In this document: piece after piece, positions 30,700-63,314 of the stretch | Layout of the letters: every line of letters begins with the position of its first letter | Numbering within the stretch: the stretch's first letter is position 1 | NCBI GenBank assembly: GCA_003971905.1 | Contig: RSEE01000042.1 | Coordinates: 186,001 to 250,000, forward strand | From: Moniliella sp. 'wahieum' | Taxonomy: Eukaryota | DNA length: 64,000 bases | Direction: 5' to 3' | Translations under genes and position numbers: made by a program | Notes under the pieces: model-generated | The model's database searches: none | What the model was told of the DNA's origin: nothing | Seen by the model: the letters and a program-made list of their open reading frames with translations, nothing else

Positions 30700-32640
30700 G
30701 ATGGGCTGCAATAACGTTGCAATATTGAAGGCGCCTTGACGTAATGTTTCAAGTGCACTTACCAATTCCAATTTGCAAGCCGCATGTGTCACGGGCCTCT
30801 TACCTCATCAATCTCATCGATCATCGATCATCGATCATCAGGTAGATCTCAACGGTCAAATCATTGCTTCGCCGATCCTCGATCCTGGCCCCTTGTCCAT
30901 TTCGGACCAGGGCATCCTTTGCTTCCCTTGGTCTTTGGTCTCAGATCGCACTCGTGTCGCCAGACCCTTCCATGCACCTGCTGCTGGGAGTTGCAAATTA
31001 ACTGGTCACCGGTCAACCCAACGTCCAACGTCCAACACGCTTTTTCGTGCGAACCGAACCAACCGAACCTCAATAATGCGCCCGGTGATCGGTGATACCA
31101 CCACTGACTTGACGCGTGACGTTTGACGCTCGTTTCCCGTCTCCCTGTAAGCTTTTAAGCCTTGGGCCTTGCGCGTTATGCGTTACGAACGGGAAGTAGA
31201 AAGATGAGAGGGCCGGTGCGGTGAAAGGTCATGTGACCGGTGTTTCACGTTTAGGACAAACCCTTAGGCCTTAGGCCTTACTACCTCCTAGTTACTAGCT
31301 TGACATGCATCACATGTGACAAGTGACCAGTACTGTGATATGTCTTGAACAGGGCTTGGCACCACCACATCACGGTGAGTAGTGAGTAGTGACTAGTGAC
31401 TAGTGACTAGTTACTGATTAATGATTGCTTGATGCCGGTATCCTGGGACGCGGAACGTCAGCGCGTCAGATTCAAGCCGGAACAGGCCGGAACATCAAGT
31501 GAGTACGTTGAACGAGCTGAGCGCTTTGATGTTAATTTGATGCATGATGCATGATGATCGATGAGACTGACGTACTCAGTACCAAGCCACTGGCGACTGA
31601 GGTATTGAGCGCAAGGTATTGAGCGCATAACGAACCTAAGTCCTGAGGCGATGCATGGTGCAACGTGCATGCTCCATGAATAACTTGGTTGCGAGGAGAC
31701 CATTATCCTTTAACGTTTAACGTTTAACGTACCTTGAACGTCTTGAAGCTTGAACCTTTAAGCTTTACGTGTTGCGAGCTTTGCGGGCGCTTTACGCTTT
31801 ACTAGTTACTGGTTTAACTTGTAGCGGGTAAGGCGTAACGGTGACATGTGACATGCATGACATGAATGGCATGTCACATGTCACATGTCACATGTCACAT
31901 GTCACTGTGATCGATGGCCAATTGATTGAAAAGCGATTGCAACCAAGTTGATAGCATTTTACGGTTAAGAAATGCCCCAATGTGTCTCACGTTTTGTCAT
32001 ACTAAACGTACCAGTCACCGATCACATGTCACATGTCACATGCAACATTGATGTATGATGCATGCATTACTTGTGGTGGCGTAAGAGACGCGTTAAGCGG
32101 TAGGCGTGACCGGGTGACCGGTGACGCGTGACGGTGACCAGGGACTCGTGGCGCGTGACTCGGGGACTGGAGCATGTGACACTTGTGACATGGGAGATCT
32201 GAGATGTGAGATCGGATGCAGATGCGCCTGATGCGGCGGGGGCTGAATGGAAGGGCGTTTGTGTCTGGGTTGTGCGTTGCGTCGGATGTCCCGAATTGCA
32301 GGGCCTGGTTTGTTTTCGGTCCTGCGTCCCGCGCGTCACACGTCACGCGTCACTTGAAGATTGATTGACCGATGGTCGACTGCATCGATGCATGCATGCA
32401 CCATGCATCAGCCGGATGGGTAGGGTCGCAACGCAGGCCGCCGGCGGTATTTGCAGGGTGCCCAGGGTCCAGCACACTTGCCAACGACTCTGTGTGACAT
32501 GTGACATGTGCGTACGTGAGTACACGAGTGCTAGTCACTACTCACCCGGTGCTCCGTGCCCGCACCCATTCATGAACCCATCCATGCAATCACGGCAGTC
32601 GCTGTGCGCTGGCTAGCTGACTAGATCCCTGGCACACATG
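30700..32640. repeat. cluster of heptamer quasi-palindromic arrays in the TRF4/SSN6 divergent promoter
   Basis: (TCATCGA)3 at 30814, (CCTTAGG)n at 31262, (GTGACTA)3 at 31389, (TTTAACG)3 at 31709, (CATGTCA)5 at 31870 and GTGAC-based mixed arrays at 32106. Confidence 0.85.
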
Positions 32641-32819: not shown

Positions 32820-35800
32820 ATGGCGTACAGCCAGCGCCAGCCCGTGCCTCCGGCGGATGCCCGACGTGTATGCGCGCCCCTACGCCTATGCGCCGCCGCC
32901 TGCCGCCTCCCGCGACCAGCCCGAGCATGCCCAGTGGCCGCGCCGCCCGCCCGCGTACGCCGCGCCGCCGCCCGAGTACAGCCCCAGCGCCGCCTACCGC
33001 CCGCCGCCGCCATGCCGCGCCGCCCGTATCCGTGCGCTATGCCAGGACCGCGAGGTGGAGCCAGATGCGCATGCCGCCCCCGCCGCCCCGCCCCCTCGGT
33101 GCTGGGCCATGCGCGCGCCCCTACTCGCCTGCCGCCCTCCCCACCGCCATCCGCCCGGGCCCCGCCGCTGCCCCCGGCCCCGGCCCCATCCCGCCCCCGC
33201 CCATCGGCCCCGGTCGTCGCCGTTGCCCTCGCCAGCCCAGGCGGGCCACCACGCCCCCCTGGCACCCGGGCATGCCGCCCCGCCGCGCGCGGTACGAAGC
33301 GTCCCCTCGCCCGCCGAGGGAGGTGCCGTGGGAGGAGCGGGATGGCAGCAGCGTATGAGCGCGAGCGCGCCCAGCGGGAGTATGAGTACGAGTACGAGTA
33401 CGAGTACCAGGCCCAGGCTCAGGCTCAGGCTCATGCTCAGGCTCAAGCTCAGGCTCATGCTCACGCCCAAGCCCAAGCCCAAGCCCACGCCCACGCTCAA
33501 GCTCAAGCTCAAGCTCAAGCTCAAGCTCAAGCTCAAGCCCACGCTCAGGCTCAGGCTGCCCACGCCCAAGTCGACCCACTTCGCCACGCGTCGCCTGCAG
33601 GAACGGAGGAGCGCGAGTGGGAGTGGAAATGGGAGCGGGACAATGCGCGGCGTGGTCCCCATGCGCTGCATATGCTGCCGGCTGGGGAACGTACACGCGA
33701 ACGGCTGATGGCGTACGAGCGGGAGTATGAGCTGAACCGCCGGCAGGGCGTCGCTATGAGTCTTCTCCCGCCCTACGCTGCTCCTCCTGACTCGGACGAG
33801 AGGGAAGAGGATCGAGCGCAAGCGCAAGCGCTCGCGCATGCTCATGCTCATGCCCATGCTCAACAAGCCCATGCTCAACATGCCCACGTTCAAGCGCAGA
33901 CCCAAGCTCAAGCTCAAGCCCAAGCACACGCCCAAGCCGAAGCCCAAGCACAGGCACAGGCAGTACAAGCCGAAGCCGAAGCTCAATCTCAGGCACAAGC
34001 TCAAGCAGCTCAAGCAGCTCAAGCGGCTCAAGCAGCCGAAGCAGCTCATGCAGCTCAAGCAGCCGAAGCAGCCCATGCAGCTCAAGCACAAGCGCGAGCA
34101 CAAGCCCAAGCCCAAGCCCAGGCCCAGGCCCAGATGGACGCCGCAGCTCATGCACATGCTCAACACATGGAGGCTGTCCATGCCCCCACTGAAGCCGAAG
34201 CGGATGTCACGCCCTTGCTCATGTTCCTGCTCATGCGCATGCCCAAGGCGAAGCGCACCGCCTCCGACCAACTCCGACGATGGGTAGGATGCCTCTTCCG
34301 CTGCAATCGCCCGTGCTACGAGAGAGACCGATGGAAGGGACAGGAGCGAGCGTGGCGCGCGTGGTGGCGCCCGTGCCGGTCCATGCTACGGCAGGAGGAA
34401 GAGGGAGTGTGGAAAATGGTGTTGCGCCGGGCACGGTGGCTGCGGGTGCCGAGGCAGCTGGCACCAGCTCCTCGCCGCCTTTGCGCCCTGCCTCGGCCCA
34501 GCTCCCGGTTCCCGCCCGAGAACCGGTAGGGGTGATGAAAGAGTTGATGCAAGCCAATGTCGAAACGTGGTTGTCAATTGGTGTGTACAGTTTGGTTTCC
34601 GGCTGCTCGCTATGATATACTAACCTAACCCCCCCCCTTCCCGCGACGTTAGCCTCGGCGGCATCTACCATGGGCGGTCGCGATGGCTACGAACGGGCGA
34701 TTGAATCGATCCAGAATGCACTACAGCACGATCCCCACTCGTTGGCGGCGCATCGAGCGCTGGGCAACGTGTACCGGGACATGGAGCAGCTGGATGTGGC
34801 GGTGGACGTGCTTCAACGCGCGCTCCAGCTGGCCCCTGAGGATGGCGAGACGTGGGGGGCGCTGGGCCACTGTTACCTGCTGATGGACGACTTGCAAAAT
34901 GCGTATGCGGCGTACCAGAAAGCGCTCTACAACCTGCCCAACGCCAAAGAGCCACGGCTATGGTACGGGATTGGTATTCTGTACGACCGGTATGGTCTGT
35001 TGGACCAGGCCGAACAAGCGTTCTCGAGTGTGGTCAGCATGGACCACGACTTGACAAGGCCAACGAAATCTTTTTCCGTCTCGGGGTGATTTACAAGCAA
35101 CAGCGCAAGTTTGCCGCCAGCCTCGAGTTTCCGCTACATTCTCCCGACCCGCCCGCGCCGCTGAAACAGGCCGATATCCAGTTCCAAGTGGGCCACGTGT
35201 CGGAACTGCAGGGCGACTTGGGGGCGGCGAAAGAAGCGTACGAGCGGGTGCTTGCCGAGCTACCCCAGCACGCCAAGGTGCTGCAACAGCTGGGCGGCCT
35301 GTATCTTCACCCCGCCGCGCCATTTGCAGACCACGAGCGGCGGTGGAGTACCTGACCGTGTCGCTGGAGGGCGATGCGGCGGATGCGCAAACGTGGTACC
35401 TTCTCGGTCGCGCCTTGATGGTTCAAGAAAACTACGACAAGGCGTACGAGGCGTACCAGCAGGCCGTGTACCGCGACGGGAACCAAGCTACGTTTTGGTG
35501 TTCGATTGGGCTGCTGTACTACCGGATTGAGCAGTACGAAGATACGCTGGATGCGTTTAGTCGTGCCATTCAGCTTCACCCGGGCATCCCCGAGGTTTGG
35601 TTCAACTTGGGCTGTCTGTACGAGACGTGCAACAACCAATGGCAAGATGCGCGGGACGCCTATGTGCGCGCGGCCCAGTTGGACCCGGACAATGCAGTGA
35701 TCGAGCGCGCTTGCGCTCCTTTCTCGCCCAACCAACCCAGCCTGTGCTCCCGCCCGCCGACCACCAACGCCATTGGATGTCCCCGACGCGGTGCAGTATG

Positions 35801-42046: not shown

Positions 42047-44773
42047 GCGTTCTGTCTGTCACGTTGGGCATGATGCTGTACGGAGTGCTATTCTAGAACA
42101 GATCCTCCTCGGTTAGCGCTCTTGTCCTTCTATGTTCCGTGTGGTGTGCTCATTTCAGTGCACCCATCATGCTTTCCCCCGCATGCCCCCCCATCCAAAA
42201 TTGACATTGGCCTCGGGTCTTTGGCCGTCCCCCCTCCCCGTTGTCTGTTTCCTCTAGCTCGATGTCGTTAAACCAATAGTGGGAGTTCGACTAACGAGTC
42301 CAACGGAGGCTGTGAGATCAGGTTGCCAGATGGATCTGATCGTCAAAGGTTCCTTCATGGTCCCGCGACATCCGTAACAGTTATAACAGGCTCACGGACG
42401 CATAAGAGCTTGTTTGCCCCTCATTTCAATTTCGCCTTCCGATCCCACCCAGTATTCTCTTCCACCTTTTCGTTCCTCTGCTGTCTTAATAGAGAAGTCG
42501 TTTAACGCGGCATGTTCCCTTGTTGAAGAACTCATCAACCCCCCATGACGATATCCATGATGCCGCCGTGTGCCCACTCAGGTTGAACGTTTGAACCATT
42601 ATACTTCGATCATTTCACGCAGCCATGTTGGGTTCTTACTAGGCCTATTTGGGCCTTATTGGCATACGATCTCAGCTTTGGGTCAATAGTAGCGAACGTC
42701 CTGGTCCACCCGACTATGGAGACCGTAATGGATGCTGATGTGTTTGGGACAGTAGCATAGGCGTTCATGCGGGCGAGAGAGAGGCGCTGGTGGTCGGAAG
42801 CAGGACGAGGGCTATAGGAGAAGGCTACTAGTCGTTGGCTTACGAGTGTACGCGCGCATCAGCAGTCTTCGGGGAGCCCAGGAGCCTCGGGCTGTAGTGA
42901 GGTCGAAAGTGCACCGCGATCAGCCATGAAGCCAGTCACTGTCGCAACACCATACAAGAGTCAAGAGGACAATGCGCTGTCTTTAATTGATGGTTGTGGA
43001 CCAACGGAAGTTCTCCAAGTACTAATGTGTTCTTCTCAGCCACTCTCACCGTGGATTCCCCAATTCTAAATGTTCCATTCTCCATTCTTCGTAGCCACAG
43101 TAAATGGTTTTTGGCCACGCACGGTATGTAATTCCCATAATTGCATCCGTGGGGACAATCTTCTCGCCACTCACTCTCTCGTCTTGGTCATTGGAGACGA
43201 TTTTGACATATGACATCATACTGGGGCCGTAAGCTCTTTCAATATCAATGGGAACCATGCGACCCCTACGTCCGTGTTAATGACGTTCACACGCTTATTC
43301 CCTAACCGGTAACCCCCATCTTTTTCAAGTGCACACGCTATCCTAAGGCCTAAGGCATATAACTTAGAATCGTTTCTTCTTTGAATCTATGTGATGGTAA
43401 CGGTTGGTACGGGCACCCGCTCCAGACACTCTGTCGTTGGGCATATATGGGCATCGAACGCTCTGCCACATACAATGTGGAAGGCCGTTAGCTCGTATAG
43501 CGCCTCTTGTGTTTTCTCTTGAATCTCCGCTACGCATCCTTCCTTTGAGAATGGGAGCGCGGGACCCTTTTTCTGGACGGTTAGTTTAGGGGTATAAACC
43601 CTTGGACAGATCAATCGGTAGCTCGACATTAGGTCCTCCTCCAGATCCTGGTTGAACCGAGCGGGTGTAGAGAGGCGAGGAGAGACCCTTAGTTTTGGTG
43701 GCGCGCTGCGTGCAAAGGCCGCAGTCCAGACCTCCGAGGGGTAGGAGCCGCGTACGTAGGTAGTTAGACCAGCTGAAGGGGTCCAGGAGCTCCGAAGTTA
43801 TCCTCTGTTCTCGCAGCGTTATCACACTCGGTACGCTTAGCTGGCGGGGAACAGACAGAGTCCTAGAGAAGAGCAAGCGCTACTGATGAGGAGTAACCGC
43901 GGCTTGCAGTGCACTCGACGGAAGTCGTAAATTCGTAAGCGTAAGGGTAGTAGAAGGTGGAAGGCGAGAGAGGAACTGGTGGTATATAGTCGGGGGGAGA
44001 CCAAAGGTAGAGGACCAGGATAGTCGACAAGGACCACAGCTAGCAAGCCTTAGACATGGCTGCTTATAATACGCAGAGGGAACCAGGTCTCAAGTGCCTT
44101 CATGACAGATTGCGGGAGGGCACTTCCAGAGAGGTAAATACTAATGCACAGCGGGCCCTTGCTCTCCAAGGCGCTGCGCTGCGTAGTCGCGCAGCATCAA
44201 GGGTCTGACAAGACTGGGCGCATTGGGCACAAGCATCGTTGCCGATAACCCATGATGCGACCATGGCGGGCGTGATGATATCCGCAGCAAGGATAAGGTG
44301 TCGACTGGCTCTCTCTCGCTAATCTAACCGGACTGACGCGTGTTGGGCTGAGATGTCTACGACATGCGGGGCTCAGCGTCCGGAGATAACCGGAGCGCCC
44401 CGTAACAGCGTTACACTTTTCCTCGTTCCCGTGTTGGGATAGTGTATGTGCAGACTGGAGGGTATCTTACCACCGAGCAAGGGCCAACCAAAAGGAGATT
44501 GTGAAGACTGATGAATCGAGATAAGAGAAACTGTGATGGCCACGTACTGATAGTATAGACCGCACGAAAGCCACTAGGACTCATCGCATTCAAACTGCGA
44601 GGAGAGAAGACGAAGTATTACATGACCATTGCATCAACATTGAAGTTCAACGTTCAACACGCACCAACTAGTACGCATCACGTACGCTGCACCCCTCTTT
44701 TTCCGGCTTTTTCCAGGAGTGCGATGAATGTGCTTGTGACAGCCGCTGTGCCAAGATTTAGGCCTCAACAACG

Positions 44774-45088
44774 CCACCATAGCAATTAGTGTTAGAGGTA
44801 CTGCTAGGGTTCTCCTGCGCGGCCCTCAATGGATCGGTGACGCTCGCCTAGCCGAGCGGAAGCGTTCCGCTCGCAGGCGCGCACGCCCTGCTCGCTCCAT
44901 CTCCCTTCTCTCTCTCCTTTCTCTCCTTCCCTTCAGACGTTGCTTGAAGACTTGTGGCTTCCCACTTTGCCTTCACGCCTTGTCTGAAGGTACGCCTCTG
45001 CTTCCTTTCTTGACCTGTTGCTCCTCACAATCAGACGTTGCTTGAAGACTTGTGGCTCACCACTTTGCCTTCATGCCTTGTCTGAAGG
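44774..45088. repeat. dispersed structured element, locus A, with two tandem copies of a 58-nt hairpin (44933..44990 and 45031..45088)
   Basis: Hairpin copies are identical at 55/58 nt. Terminal inverted repeat CCTTCAGAC/GTCTGAAGG. Homologous to 53780..54000. Confidence 0.85.
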
Positions 45089-47892
45089 CTGCTTTGCAGC
45101 TGATCCATAGGATCGCGAGTGCTCCCAAGTCGCACTCTAGCAATTAGGAACCGAAAAAAACTGGACTTTCGTATCGAAAAAGCAATTCAAAATTAAAGCA
45201 GATCATATGAAGAAGGTATGAGCAGCACATGCTGAGCTTTTAAGTGTGGGCTGTAAGCTCTGTAAGGGAGAACCTGGGGGAGCCTGGTGAATCCGGTGGA
45301 TATAGGTGACTAGTGACTGTGGTGACATTTAACGACTATATAGTGACTAGTGTTGACGTTGAGCGTTGAACGTACGTGTTGAACGTTGAACATTGACTAG
45401 TGACTATAGTGACGGGTGACGTGTGACTGGTGACTAGCCTGACTGGTAGTCCTAGTTGAAAGAGTGGGGGCTAGGGTGAAGCACTAGACCGGGCGATCAA
45501 TGGGTGAGCGCGACAAATCGGTCACACCAGTGAGAGCCCAGAACCGCGGTTGCCCGTTAACTGAGAAGTAGCTACGCTACCAAGCTAAGGACGATTGCAC
45601 TGTGCAGGGTGGGAACAGCCAGAGACAGCTTCTTGTAAGCTCCTGACGCTAGTCCAACCTTCAATGCAACAGGGAGAAGAGGAACGAGGGGAACGAGGGC
45701 GCGACGGTAACCAATCCGGAGCGCGCGAGTCGCGGAACTCTATAGCCAGTTCCGCTTGCCAGCGACATGGCCGATCCAGCCATCACACCAAGTGGTGCCA
45801 CATGCCACCACACTCCAACACTAGTGCATGATGTATGGCAGGTCCCTTATAGCCACAACAAGTGCACACTTACCATATGGTCCCACGGTATACGCTCCGC
45901 CCCTCCATATAGTTGTCTTCGTTTGTCTTTTAGCAATGGTTCTTCGGTTGCCGGTAAGGCGGCAACAGGTAATGAAGGCGTAGCGCTTAGCAAGCGCTTT
46001 TATGGTAGTGTCATGGATTTTTTCTGAATCTATGAGATGGATAGACCGAGGAGGCAAGCCCATACGGGCATGCGGAGAAGAATCGGTAGTCCATCAATTA
46101 CATCAGTCTTCAAGCCTGTGAAGACTTTTGTGATGAGCGTCGTACGTTGAATACTGGGAAACGGGGCCTCTCAACGTCAAAAGCGTAGTGGTATCGTCAT
46201 CGCCACACGTCATGACGCTGTGGAGCGTGGGTAAGATTATGGCCCACTCACGCGAGGAGAGACCTGAGGCTCAGGCCTGAGGGCTTGAGGCGGGCCAGGG
46301 TAGGTTTGAGGGGCCTAGTATGCTCGAGTCCTCAGACCTGGGCCTTCGGTCTTAGGCCTCAATATTCAATGCGCTCAAGCTTCTTGAGCTCGTCAAGCTT
46401 CAAGCTTCGAGGCGCTGAAGTGTTCGATACGATATGTAGATGTTTTGATTATGTGACGGATACTAATGTCTGCGGGTCACTGGCGGACTGATCGATCATG
46501 CACATGTTGGCTGCTTTTGCCGGCATTCGCTTGAGGCCTCGCGGGGCATCACCATCCCCTGGCACAGGTGCCGAGGATTCAATATTCAAGCTTTCAAGCT
46601 CCAGGCTGCTGATGCCTGAGCCTCAGACCTTAGACTAGGGCCTTAGCCCTCTCAGGCTCTAGGCCTTCCGGATACCATGAATGGCGCCAGCCACAGTAGT
46701 AGGGTGTGTGTACACGATGAACCCATGTCGAAGATGGGGGGTTGGACGACATTGATCCGTCATCGCCCTATTGGAGACAAGAAATTTGGGAGGGTACATT
46801 CGCCCCCTGCTTCGTCAGCATGTAATATGTACTTGTTTGTCTTCTTTGACGGTATAGCCCCGACCAAAACGGTCGACACGAGGCTTGTGGACCCCACAGA
46901 GAGGGCACCAGAAAAGGCGCCGTGACCCTACTGGATTGTAATGACATGGGAGGAGGTGTGAAGCTTGAAGGGTGAGACATGAGGCCTGTGAGGCCCGAGG
47001 CGGAGAAAAGAGCCCGCTCTTCACTCTGCGGACGACATGCCGTTGACGGGGGTGAAGGTGGGATGCAGGCTACTACCCAGCCTCTTCGAGGCAGAGGCTG
47101 TGAGTTTGTGGCGTATTCAAACACCCATGGCACCCAGACTCAAGTACTCATCGATCATGAACGCATCTCAACGTAACACTCGCCCACGGCGAGTGGCGCT
47201 GGTTTCTGCACCCTGGCCAGCCAGCCTCCCAACCAGCAGGGCTTGCTTTGTTTTGTTCAAACACCCCGTCCGGCAACAGCTTCAAGCTTCATTGGCCGAA
47301 GGGTCGGGGACGCTGAGCATCGGCTTCCGCTGCGTTGAGCACGTTGAGTGCTGCCACCACCACCACCTCCCGCGTCGGCTTCGGCCTCCACCCTCCTCTG
47401 CGGCCCATTTTCATACGCATTCGCCCTCCTCCCGTCTCGCCCCACCTTGAACGAACAGGCTGCGCCCCTTCTTCCTGCCATTGCCCTGGTGGCCAACATC
47501 CTCAGCATATCAACGGATCAGTGCCTCCGTGCCTCAGCACCTCAGCACCTCAGCGCCCGCCGCCATTCAGCACGCCGGGGCCTGCAGGCAGCCCGGTTTA
47601 ACAAAGCTTACTCTCCCACTCCCGTAGAGGCGTGATCTTTCTTCCTTTTCCTTTTCCCTTCCCCTCCCCTCCCCGCCTCTCCCTCTCCCCTTCCATCTGC
47701 TCGAAAGCGCGCCAATTCAGCGCGTGCCATGTCTGTGCCCCGCACACGTTTTCCTCATCCGCCTCATTCGTTCTGAGACGTTCGTTTCTGCTTCGTAATT
47801 CACCACCGAACACCATCAATCGAAGCGGAAGAGCGTTGAGCTCAGCTCTAATCACTCCTCGCCATGCCTCCCTCCCCCACCCCCCGCTCAAC

Positions 47893-53779: not shown

Positions 53780-54000
53780 CCGCCATAGCAAAACGGAAGT
53801 GCTATCATAGAGTTTTCCCCTGCACGGCCCTCGAGCTTCAAGCTTCACTTTGATCGCGGTGACGCTCGCTTCCCCAGGCGGAAGCGCTCGCAGGCTGCGC
53901 ATCCCCTGCTTCTCCGCCCCCCTTCTCTGTTCTCCTTCCCTTTTCAGACGTGCATGAAGGTTTGTGGCTCACCCTTTTACCTTCACGGCTTTTCTGAAAG
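53780..54000. repeat. dispersed structured element, locus B (third hairpin copy at 53942..53999)
   Basis: Colinear blocks shared with locus A: CCATAGCAA, CCTGC(A/G)CGGCCCTC, CGGTGACGCTCGC, GCGGAAGCG, GCTCGCAGG, a CT tract and TTCAGACGT...TCTGAA. Confidence 0.85.
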
Positions 54001-54404
54001 CGAAGCAACCCGCTTTTCACCGCCTATAGTAAGCGTTCGTGAAACTGGGGGGTATTTCGTTTTTCAATCAAGGCCCATGTCCGGGCTTCATCTGAATCTC
54101 TCTGTACATCGGACGCCATCCCCCCTGCTCACGCTGCCCCCCGAGCCCACCTATTGACGGCAACGAAGCTCAAGCAATACGACGCCTACATGGCCAGTCG
54201 ATCCACATTCTTTTGCGGCCCTCCTGGCCAAACGCGTTGCGCACTCGACTGGTACAAATGAAATTCGTTCCAGCTATACGACAGGCGTGCCTACTCTTTT
54301 CACAGAACGCAGCGCTCAGCCGCTCTACGTTCAATGTAAAATCGTTCTGAATGCTTGACAGGAGACACTCTGGACATAACATGTCATGGTGAGGTTTGTA
54401 TAGC

Positions 54405-63221: not shown

Positions 63222-63314
63222 GCTCCGATCTTCCAGTGGTTAGGAAGTGGGATTTTGAATAGGCACCTGTCAAGACATCTTCCCGAAACCTGGGTTCGAA
63301 TCCCAGTTGGAGCT
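63222..63314 (+). tRNA. tRNA-Gln(UUG) with a 21-nt canonical intron (63259..63279)
   Basis: Acceptor stem GCTCCGA/TTGGAGC, D arm TTCC-AGTGGTTA-GGAA, anticodon stem TGGGA/TCCCG with TTG at 63255-63257, and T arm CTGGG-TTCGAAT-CCCAG. Confidence 0.93.

Follow-up and report, generated by a model that had tools for sequence, protein, structure and literature searches.

A solo LTR in an intergenic region

Between an L14/L23e ribosomal protein gene on one side and a CCCH zinc-finger gene on the other, the window (the whole 64-kb stretch of DNA analysed here) holds a repeat of 353 bp at 44790-45142 on the plus strand. Its ends read TGTTAGAG and CTCTAGCA, that is, TG…CA with 8-bp imperfect terminal inverted repeats; such ends with short inverted repeats are a feature of long terminal repeats (LTRs; PMC3601003). 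The repeat is a solo LTR, in the two-hairpin variant, of a non-autonomous Ty1/copia-type element. All its parts are read on the plus strand. The 5' part, the presumed U3 (44790..44934), contains GC-rich stems, an 'A-box-like' word and a pyrimidine tract. A first hairpin (44930..44990, with a homogenised segment at 44935-44989) is joined to a second (45031..45087, homogenised segment 45033-45087) by a 45-nt linker (44990..45034), which is found only in the two-hairpin variant, starts with GT, ends with AG and has a homologue in the helper family described below. The 3' part is the presumed U5 (45088..45142), with the primer-binding site (PBS) coming next in full-length elements.

The word ATTAG lies on both sides of the LTR (44785..44789 and 45143..45147, plus strand), the right copy matching the left. 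The assembly contains a second copy of window 35495-55846, either as two haplotypes or as subgenomes, which serves for empty-site checks: contig C41:217000-236900 runs parallel to it, mostly at 92-96% identity, with two short pieces at 87-88%. At the homologous site on C41 there is one ATTAG and no LTR. ATTAG on both sides, together with the single ATTAG at the LTR-free site, shows an insertion with a 5-bp duplication; thus, both a target-site duplication (TSD; 4-6 bp expected) and an empty site are present for the window LTR. This LTR lineage has also left an older relic at 53857..54001 on the plus strand, decayed and with one hairpin, which is 76-78% identical to the family LTRs; it is also found on C41, inside a region of 91-95% identity.

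The original prediction had described a 'structured ncRNA or small mobile element' at 44774..45088. Its mobile half stands, as a solo LTR with TSD and empty site, and its ncRNA half falls. The bounds also shift: 44774-44789 belongs to the host flank and the TSD, and at the other end the prediction stopped 54 nt short. The proposed genome search for copy number and TSDs bore fruit, with 399 candidates, 187 motif matches and the ATTAG duplication at the window copy. The hairpins occupy the middle of the solo LTR, which comes from a non-autonomous and young element of Ty1/copia type, and the hairpin pair is not evidence of a new host RNA.

Rfam found nothing at the gathering score, and nothing at E<=1, within 44700-45250, just as the original prediction had recognised no known RNA family. 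Over the whole 64-kb window its sole match was a tRNA at 63222; this gene (63222-63314, 49 bits) was missed by ARAGORN, which reported 0 tRNA genes in the window, and it probably bears an intron. A tRNA-derived SINE or Pol III gene was rejected for the stretch, which has no tRNA or Rfam match and has LTR ends instead of a tail. A heat-shock element, a hammerhead and a SECIS element, compared by eye, did not fit, and an IMG/VR scan with a 23-nt hairpin word gave 0 matches.

Several other repeats lie in the window. A 364-bp TG…CA insert at 45457-45820, with a CTAGT duplication, is missing from C41 and probably represents another family's solo LTR. An unrelated dispersed repeat of ~826 bp (43582-44407) has 39 other scored matches among 286 candidates, at 83-89%; it is older, since it is also present on C41, and two inspected copies come after a run of G/C, which would suit an LTR next to an interior. 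At 31302-32352, 30814-30839 and 45307-45437, 7-bp units (CATGTCA, GTGACTA, TCATCGA) form intergenic arrays, which recur in intergenic DNA across this genome. The long array at 33378-34258, whose units measure 6, 9 and 12 bp and whose periods are in frame, is probably low-complexity coding sequence.

A non-autonomous family and its likely helper

The 69.5-Mb eukaryotic assembly (223 contigs), whose compact genes with introns suggest a fungus, was searched with the repeat, giving the 399 candidates, of which 40 were scored and all were 95-100% identical. The same ends recur at 30 loci and in 5 fetched elements with unrelated flanks, the exception being L005, whose 3' end is truncated. A 20-nt motif from the 3' part of the LTR has 187 genome matches and the linker junction specific to the two-hairpin variant has 40 (controls, 0 in each case), both counts missing copies that bear indels. 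Our LTR set comprises 68 distinct places, 52 of this family and 16 of the helper family, and a perfect 5-bp TSD flanks 34 of the 38 LTRs, from both families, that have no adjoining interior. The assembly is rich in 1-nt indels, and sequencing error may therefore account for some of the differences seen in single copies. The decayed LTRs L148-L153 of this lineage have common flanks and apparently lie inside another repeat; L152 has an independent second hairpin with different bounds.

In complete elements, paired LTRs border an interior of ~3.9 kb with a PBS of the half-tRNA(iMet) type, a polypurine tract (PPT) and a truncated gag. LTRs that border PBS and PPT are 96-98% identical to the window LTR. 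Nine two-LTR elements were fetched, with interiors of 3.5-4.1 kb; TSDs match in 7/9 and the two LTRs differ by 0-1 substitutions in 7/9. The five elements measured are all 4.56-4.70 kb long. The sequence GGTTATG comes after the 5' LTR and a G-rich tract precedes the 3' LTR. Pairing of the PBS with the spliced tRNA-Met takes in seven bases, opposite nt 34-40 of the tRNA and across its splice junction. A first tRNA-Met pattern had 0 genome matches because the genes carry an intron; the intron-bearing pattern occurs at 11 places in the genome (four inspected), and we take this tRNA to be the initiator on the strength of its A1-U72, its three G-C pairs and its T-loop.

In the element at L033, the first interior frame encodes 198 Gag residues without a zf-CCHC domain and continues into in-frame tandem repeats, and a search of five interior frames against Pfam gave nothing below E 0.26. 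Within this interior (L033:1413-4666) the long frames of tandem repeats have periods of 33, 45, 90 and 114 nt, all multiples of three, and a further 89-nt repeat lies close to the 3' end. The orientation of PBS, PPT and gag sets the sense strand of the element as the plus strand of the window.

A search based on the interior led to elements with the same first 595 nt (91-92%) and the same last 36 nt, including the PPT; two of them are the best RVT_2 matches of the genome. The element L097 carries zf-CCHC, Pol_BBD, rve, SH3 and RVT_2 in copia order (Pfam), and its last frame, the RNase H region, has no Pfam match at E<=0.01. The pol order of protease, integrase and reverse transcriptase (RT) is thus present in this autonomous relative, while the window's own family is without pol. 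The two have in common the primer site, the start of gag and the PPT; their Gag proteins align over 198 residues at 85% identity, and their LTRs are ~71% identical. From these sequence features, the autonomous Ty1/copia relative is the likely helper, and the window's family would be its parasite. In seven of seven inspected helper elements gag ends in the same TAG (L097:2686-2688; L096, L098-L101, L104), and in L097 the protease frame follows this TAG in the same frame, a possible stop-codon readthrough. L099/L100 (C14:943.6-956.4 kb) are tandem helper elements with a common middle LTR and one GAATT duplication.

We propose the following history. A non-autonomous Ty1/copia-type element of ~4.6 kb inserted here after the two homologous chromosome copies diverged, most likely copied in trans by the Hemivirus-like autonomous relative; LTR-LTR recombination would then have removed the interior, leaving one LTR between 5-bp TSDs. 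Mobilisation in trans is suggested by analogy with mini-Ty1 (PMC4974528). One LTR in the genome, L063, is a chimera that matches the parasite at 240/242 positions in its 5' part and an LTR of the helper family at 100/101 in its 3' part. This fits co-packaging of two RNAs in one particle; ectopic recombination could also yield it.

Two hairpins that evolve in concert

The tandem 58-nt hairpins of the original prediction are there as described: 44933-44990 and 45031-45088 match at 55/58 positions with a spacing of 98 nt, and the three differences, at unit positions 28, 29 and 44, are all unpaired in the plus-strand fold. The fold itself is also sound against shuffles on either strand, with z from -3.0 to -6.4 (copy 1, -5.1 on plus and -6.4 on minus; copy 2, -3.0 and -3.4). 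The diverged pyrimidine leader is likewise real, the linker being 60% identical to the pyrimidine tract that precedes copy 1 (measured on L033). Further stems claimed upstream are not beyond chance (z -1.45; 19/200 shuffles equally good).

One-hairpin LTRs are ~255 bp long in the parasite and ~245 bp in the helper, two-hairpin LTRs ~353 bp and ~344 bp, and the linkers are homologous. As both families have doubles with a homologous linker, the duplication predates the split between helper and parasite. Between L033 and L097, identity is 73% in the hairpin segment, 77% in the linker, 71% in the 5' part and 57% in the 3' part. The two hairpins are identical within L033 and within L097, though they differ by 27% between the families; therefore, the hairpins evolve in concert. 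Among 33 parasite doubles, both 55-nt segments are identical to those of L033 in 18, one is in 12 and neither is in 3. The window LTR is one of these three, and it is this copy that departs from its family at the three loop differences. In the helper family the two hairpins are identical in 5 of 13 doubles, and are 83-96% identical in the more decayed ones; two of the five, L124 and L126, of a helper subfamily, each have three differences from L097 that are present in both hairpins. A single-hairpin 5' LTR is combined with a double or linker-bearing 3' LTR within one TSD in L112, L113, L115 and L101/102.

The LTR thus contains an internal duplication of pyrimidine tract and hairpin that was there before helper and parasite split. 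During reverse transcription, template switches from one direct repeat to the other probably keep the hairpin segments identical within each subfamily, and the same switching would produce the one-hairpin LTRs. This is the simplest cause of the concerted hairpins; post-insertion deletion or conversion could give the same one-/two-hairpin pattern. We are highly confident in the account as a whole, from insertion and copying in trans by the helper to solo-LTR formation and hairpin homogenisation.

Selection on structure and other readings of the hairpin

The original prediction took the unpaired position of the window's differences as selection on structure. Three out of three gives p 0.035 if the changes are independent and 0.11 if they are two events. 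Over 85 hairpin copies, substitutions number 7 at paired and 4 at unpaired positions (36 and 19 positions, respectively) and indels 9 and 6; three of the four unpaired substitutions are the window's own, and three of the seven paired ones fall at the last base of the repeat. Family-wide, the changes hit stems too.

Covariation was scored on 19 aligned variants, from which 11 were kept, one per lineage (the sisters L036, L105, L126, L128, L130, L150, L151 and L153 being left out), against the parasite's 21 pairs. Two biases act on this set: eight loci were chosen by way of a pattern that includes a stem, among 100 listed matches out of 175, which favours conservation, and most lineages are dead relics in neutral decay, which works against a signal. 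Among 210 cells, 156 are unchanged, 1 is a double (compensatory) change, 8 are G-U, 16 are A.C, 27 are broken and 2 are gaps. Divergence is 14.5% at paired and 17.9% at unpaired columns (p=0.33, or 0.63 once columns that the search pattern holds constant are left out). Inspection by eye shows another double change in the 53.9-kb relic, beside the middle stem, at a pair outside the scored structure. Thus, the two outcomes that the prediction itself had set against a structured RNA are what was found: the sequence is the LTR of a transposon, and the larger alignment shows no covariation. Further, the hairpin is no better conserved between the families than the linker, which points to homogenisation and not to structural selection.

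Some structural selection may nevertheless act, since the hairpin is still significant in both active lineages (z -5.1 and -3.2), its pairs having been re-registered. The hairpin might be a selected cis-acting RNA of the retrotransposon, either a TAR-like 5' hairpin or a packaging or strand-transfer signal, with its doubling favoured at the level of the element. The fold is significant in both active lineages despite their 27% divergence, the linker persists in both although direct repeats are easily lost, and Ty1 has cis-acting structure in and near its R region (PMC4974528). The frequency of doubles is suggestive too, at 12/18 LTRs of the two-LTR elements, compared with 40 junction matches to 187 LTR matches genome-wide. 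However, these nine elements are few, recent and non-independent, five were first found by a two-hairpin query, and a one-hairpin element with intact TSD and identical LTRs exists (L098). Given also the single compensatory change against 27 breaks, the like divergence of paired and unpaired columns, and the hairpin identity not exceeding that of the linker, we regard this reading as possible but doubtful.

The duplicated unit may instead act as DNA, as a promoter or enhancer block built on the inverted words TGAAG/CTTCA, in which case the fold is a by-product of the palindrome. LTR promoter regions commonly hold direct repeats of variable copy number, and here folding is about equal on both strands and the stems are made of one short word used twice. 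However, the unit stands towards the 3' side, in the second half of the LTR with 55 nt left to its end, and no binding factor is known; we consider such a block unlikely. It is very improbable that the 45-nt linker is an intron between exon-like hairpins: in both families it opens with GTACGC or GTGCGC and closes with AG, but a linker-less hairpin junction has 0 genome matches, and 29/32 tallied parasite linkers end in GAG, not YAG.

A host structured ncRNA or pre-miRNA-like gene on the minus strand, the strand that the original prediction preferred, has hardly any likelihood left: folding energy is lower on minus in 14/19 variants and single-side changes give A.C on plus (16) more often than G-U on plus (8), but the sense strand is plus to judge from PBS, PPT and gag, all four helper variants fold better on plus, where the helper hairpin is significant (z -3.2) as it is not on minus (z -1.7, -0.7), the homologous site on C41 is empty, the sequence moves only within the LTR among the loci examined, there is no Rfam match, and the changes neither covary nor avoid stems.

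Discussion

The locus as found is an ordinary solo LTR, with one complete LTR, a single TSD pair and an empty homologous site, and no material difference from other solo LTRs; the doubled hairpin, kept identical within the element and within its helper, is the sole unusual point. Judged from sequence features, the family appears to work like a Hemivirus-type copia parasite. What defines hemiviruses is the use of a half tRNA that primes from its nt 40, and the PBS here likewise pairs with the anticodon arm of tRNA(iMet) up to nt 40. Hemivirus-type Ty1/copia elements (Ty5, Drosophila copia, Osser and 1731) are alike in their TG…CA LTRs, 5-bp TSD and PPT, and the gag-PR-IN-RT order is that of the helper, whereas the window's element lacks pol (PMC1181622 for the hemiviruses). 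The family differs from this type by its one- or two-copy hairpin unit in the LTR and by a 2-for-1 bulge in the PBS after 7 bp.

LARD-type elements are non-autonomous LTR elements, and the family can be likened to them as well. TR-GAG elements, described in plants, are also alike in having LTRs, PBS, PPT, a gag-derived frame, recent activity and no pol domains. However, they are <4 kb long and the window's family is 4.6 kb (4.56-4.70 kb, 5/5), and they have one Gag-precursor ORF, whereas here the N-terminal 198 Gag residues, without a zinc knuckle, are followed by tandem repeats (PMC4350172). The donor/helper arrangement of mini-Ty1 (PMC4974528) similarly uses a deleted element that keeps the LTR-adjacent cis sequences (5' interior and PPT) common with the autonomous one; the family here is natural, and its LTRs are only ~71% identical to those of its helper. 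The literature searched by title and abstract, with few subscription papers covered, holds no description of this family or of a concertedly evolving duplicated LTR hairpin. The retrotransposon family may already have a name in repeat databases (Repbase/Dfam).

In both families the homogenised segment opens sharply at an AG after the pyrimidine tract, in the manner of a transcript start, which makes the hairpin a candidate for the R region. It would then most likely lie at the start of the element RNA, where a pyrimidine-rich start site precedes it, and strand transfer may benefit from it. This is a speculative idea, to which we give rather less than an even chance. One known reason for conservation in LTRs is the presence of stem-loops where R is long, and delimiting R requires RNA data (PMC3601003). 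The truncated 3' LTR of L104 was dropped as a marker of the transcript start; post-insertion deletion at a short shared sequence suffices to explain it.

HIV-1 TAR is a hairpin of ~60 nt inside an LTR. The present hairpin is of similar size and also inside the LTR, and differs in that there is no sequence likeness, no Rfam match and no known binding protein, and its R position is putative. A stronger form of the R-region idea makes the hairpin the R element of a helper/parasite pair and the two-hairpin LTR an old selected architecture, one copy serving at the transcript start and the other at the 3' end or as strand-transfer acceptor. Such an arrangement would have been kept through the divergence of the lineages and homogenised by reverse transcription, with one-hairpin LTRs as constant by-products; we think it improbable.

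When reverse transcription homogenises a repeat, the outcome can look like 'selection on RNA structure'. This genome offers a natural set, in which a copia family that is young and non-autonomous stands beside its likely helper, a chimeric LTR and one- and two-hairpin variants. If the hairpin defines R, strand transfer and template switching would be readable from the genomic copies.
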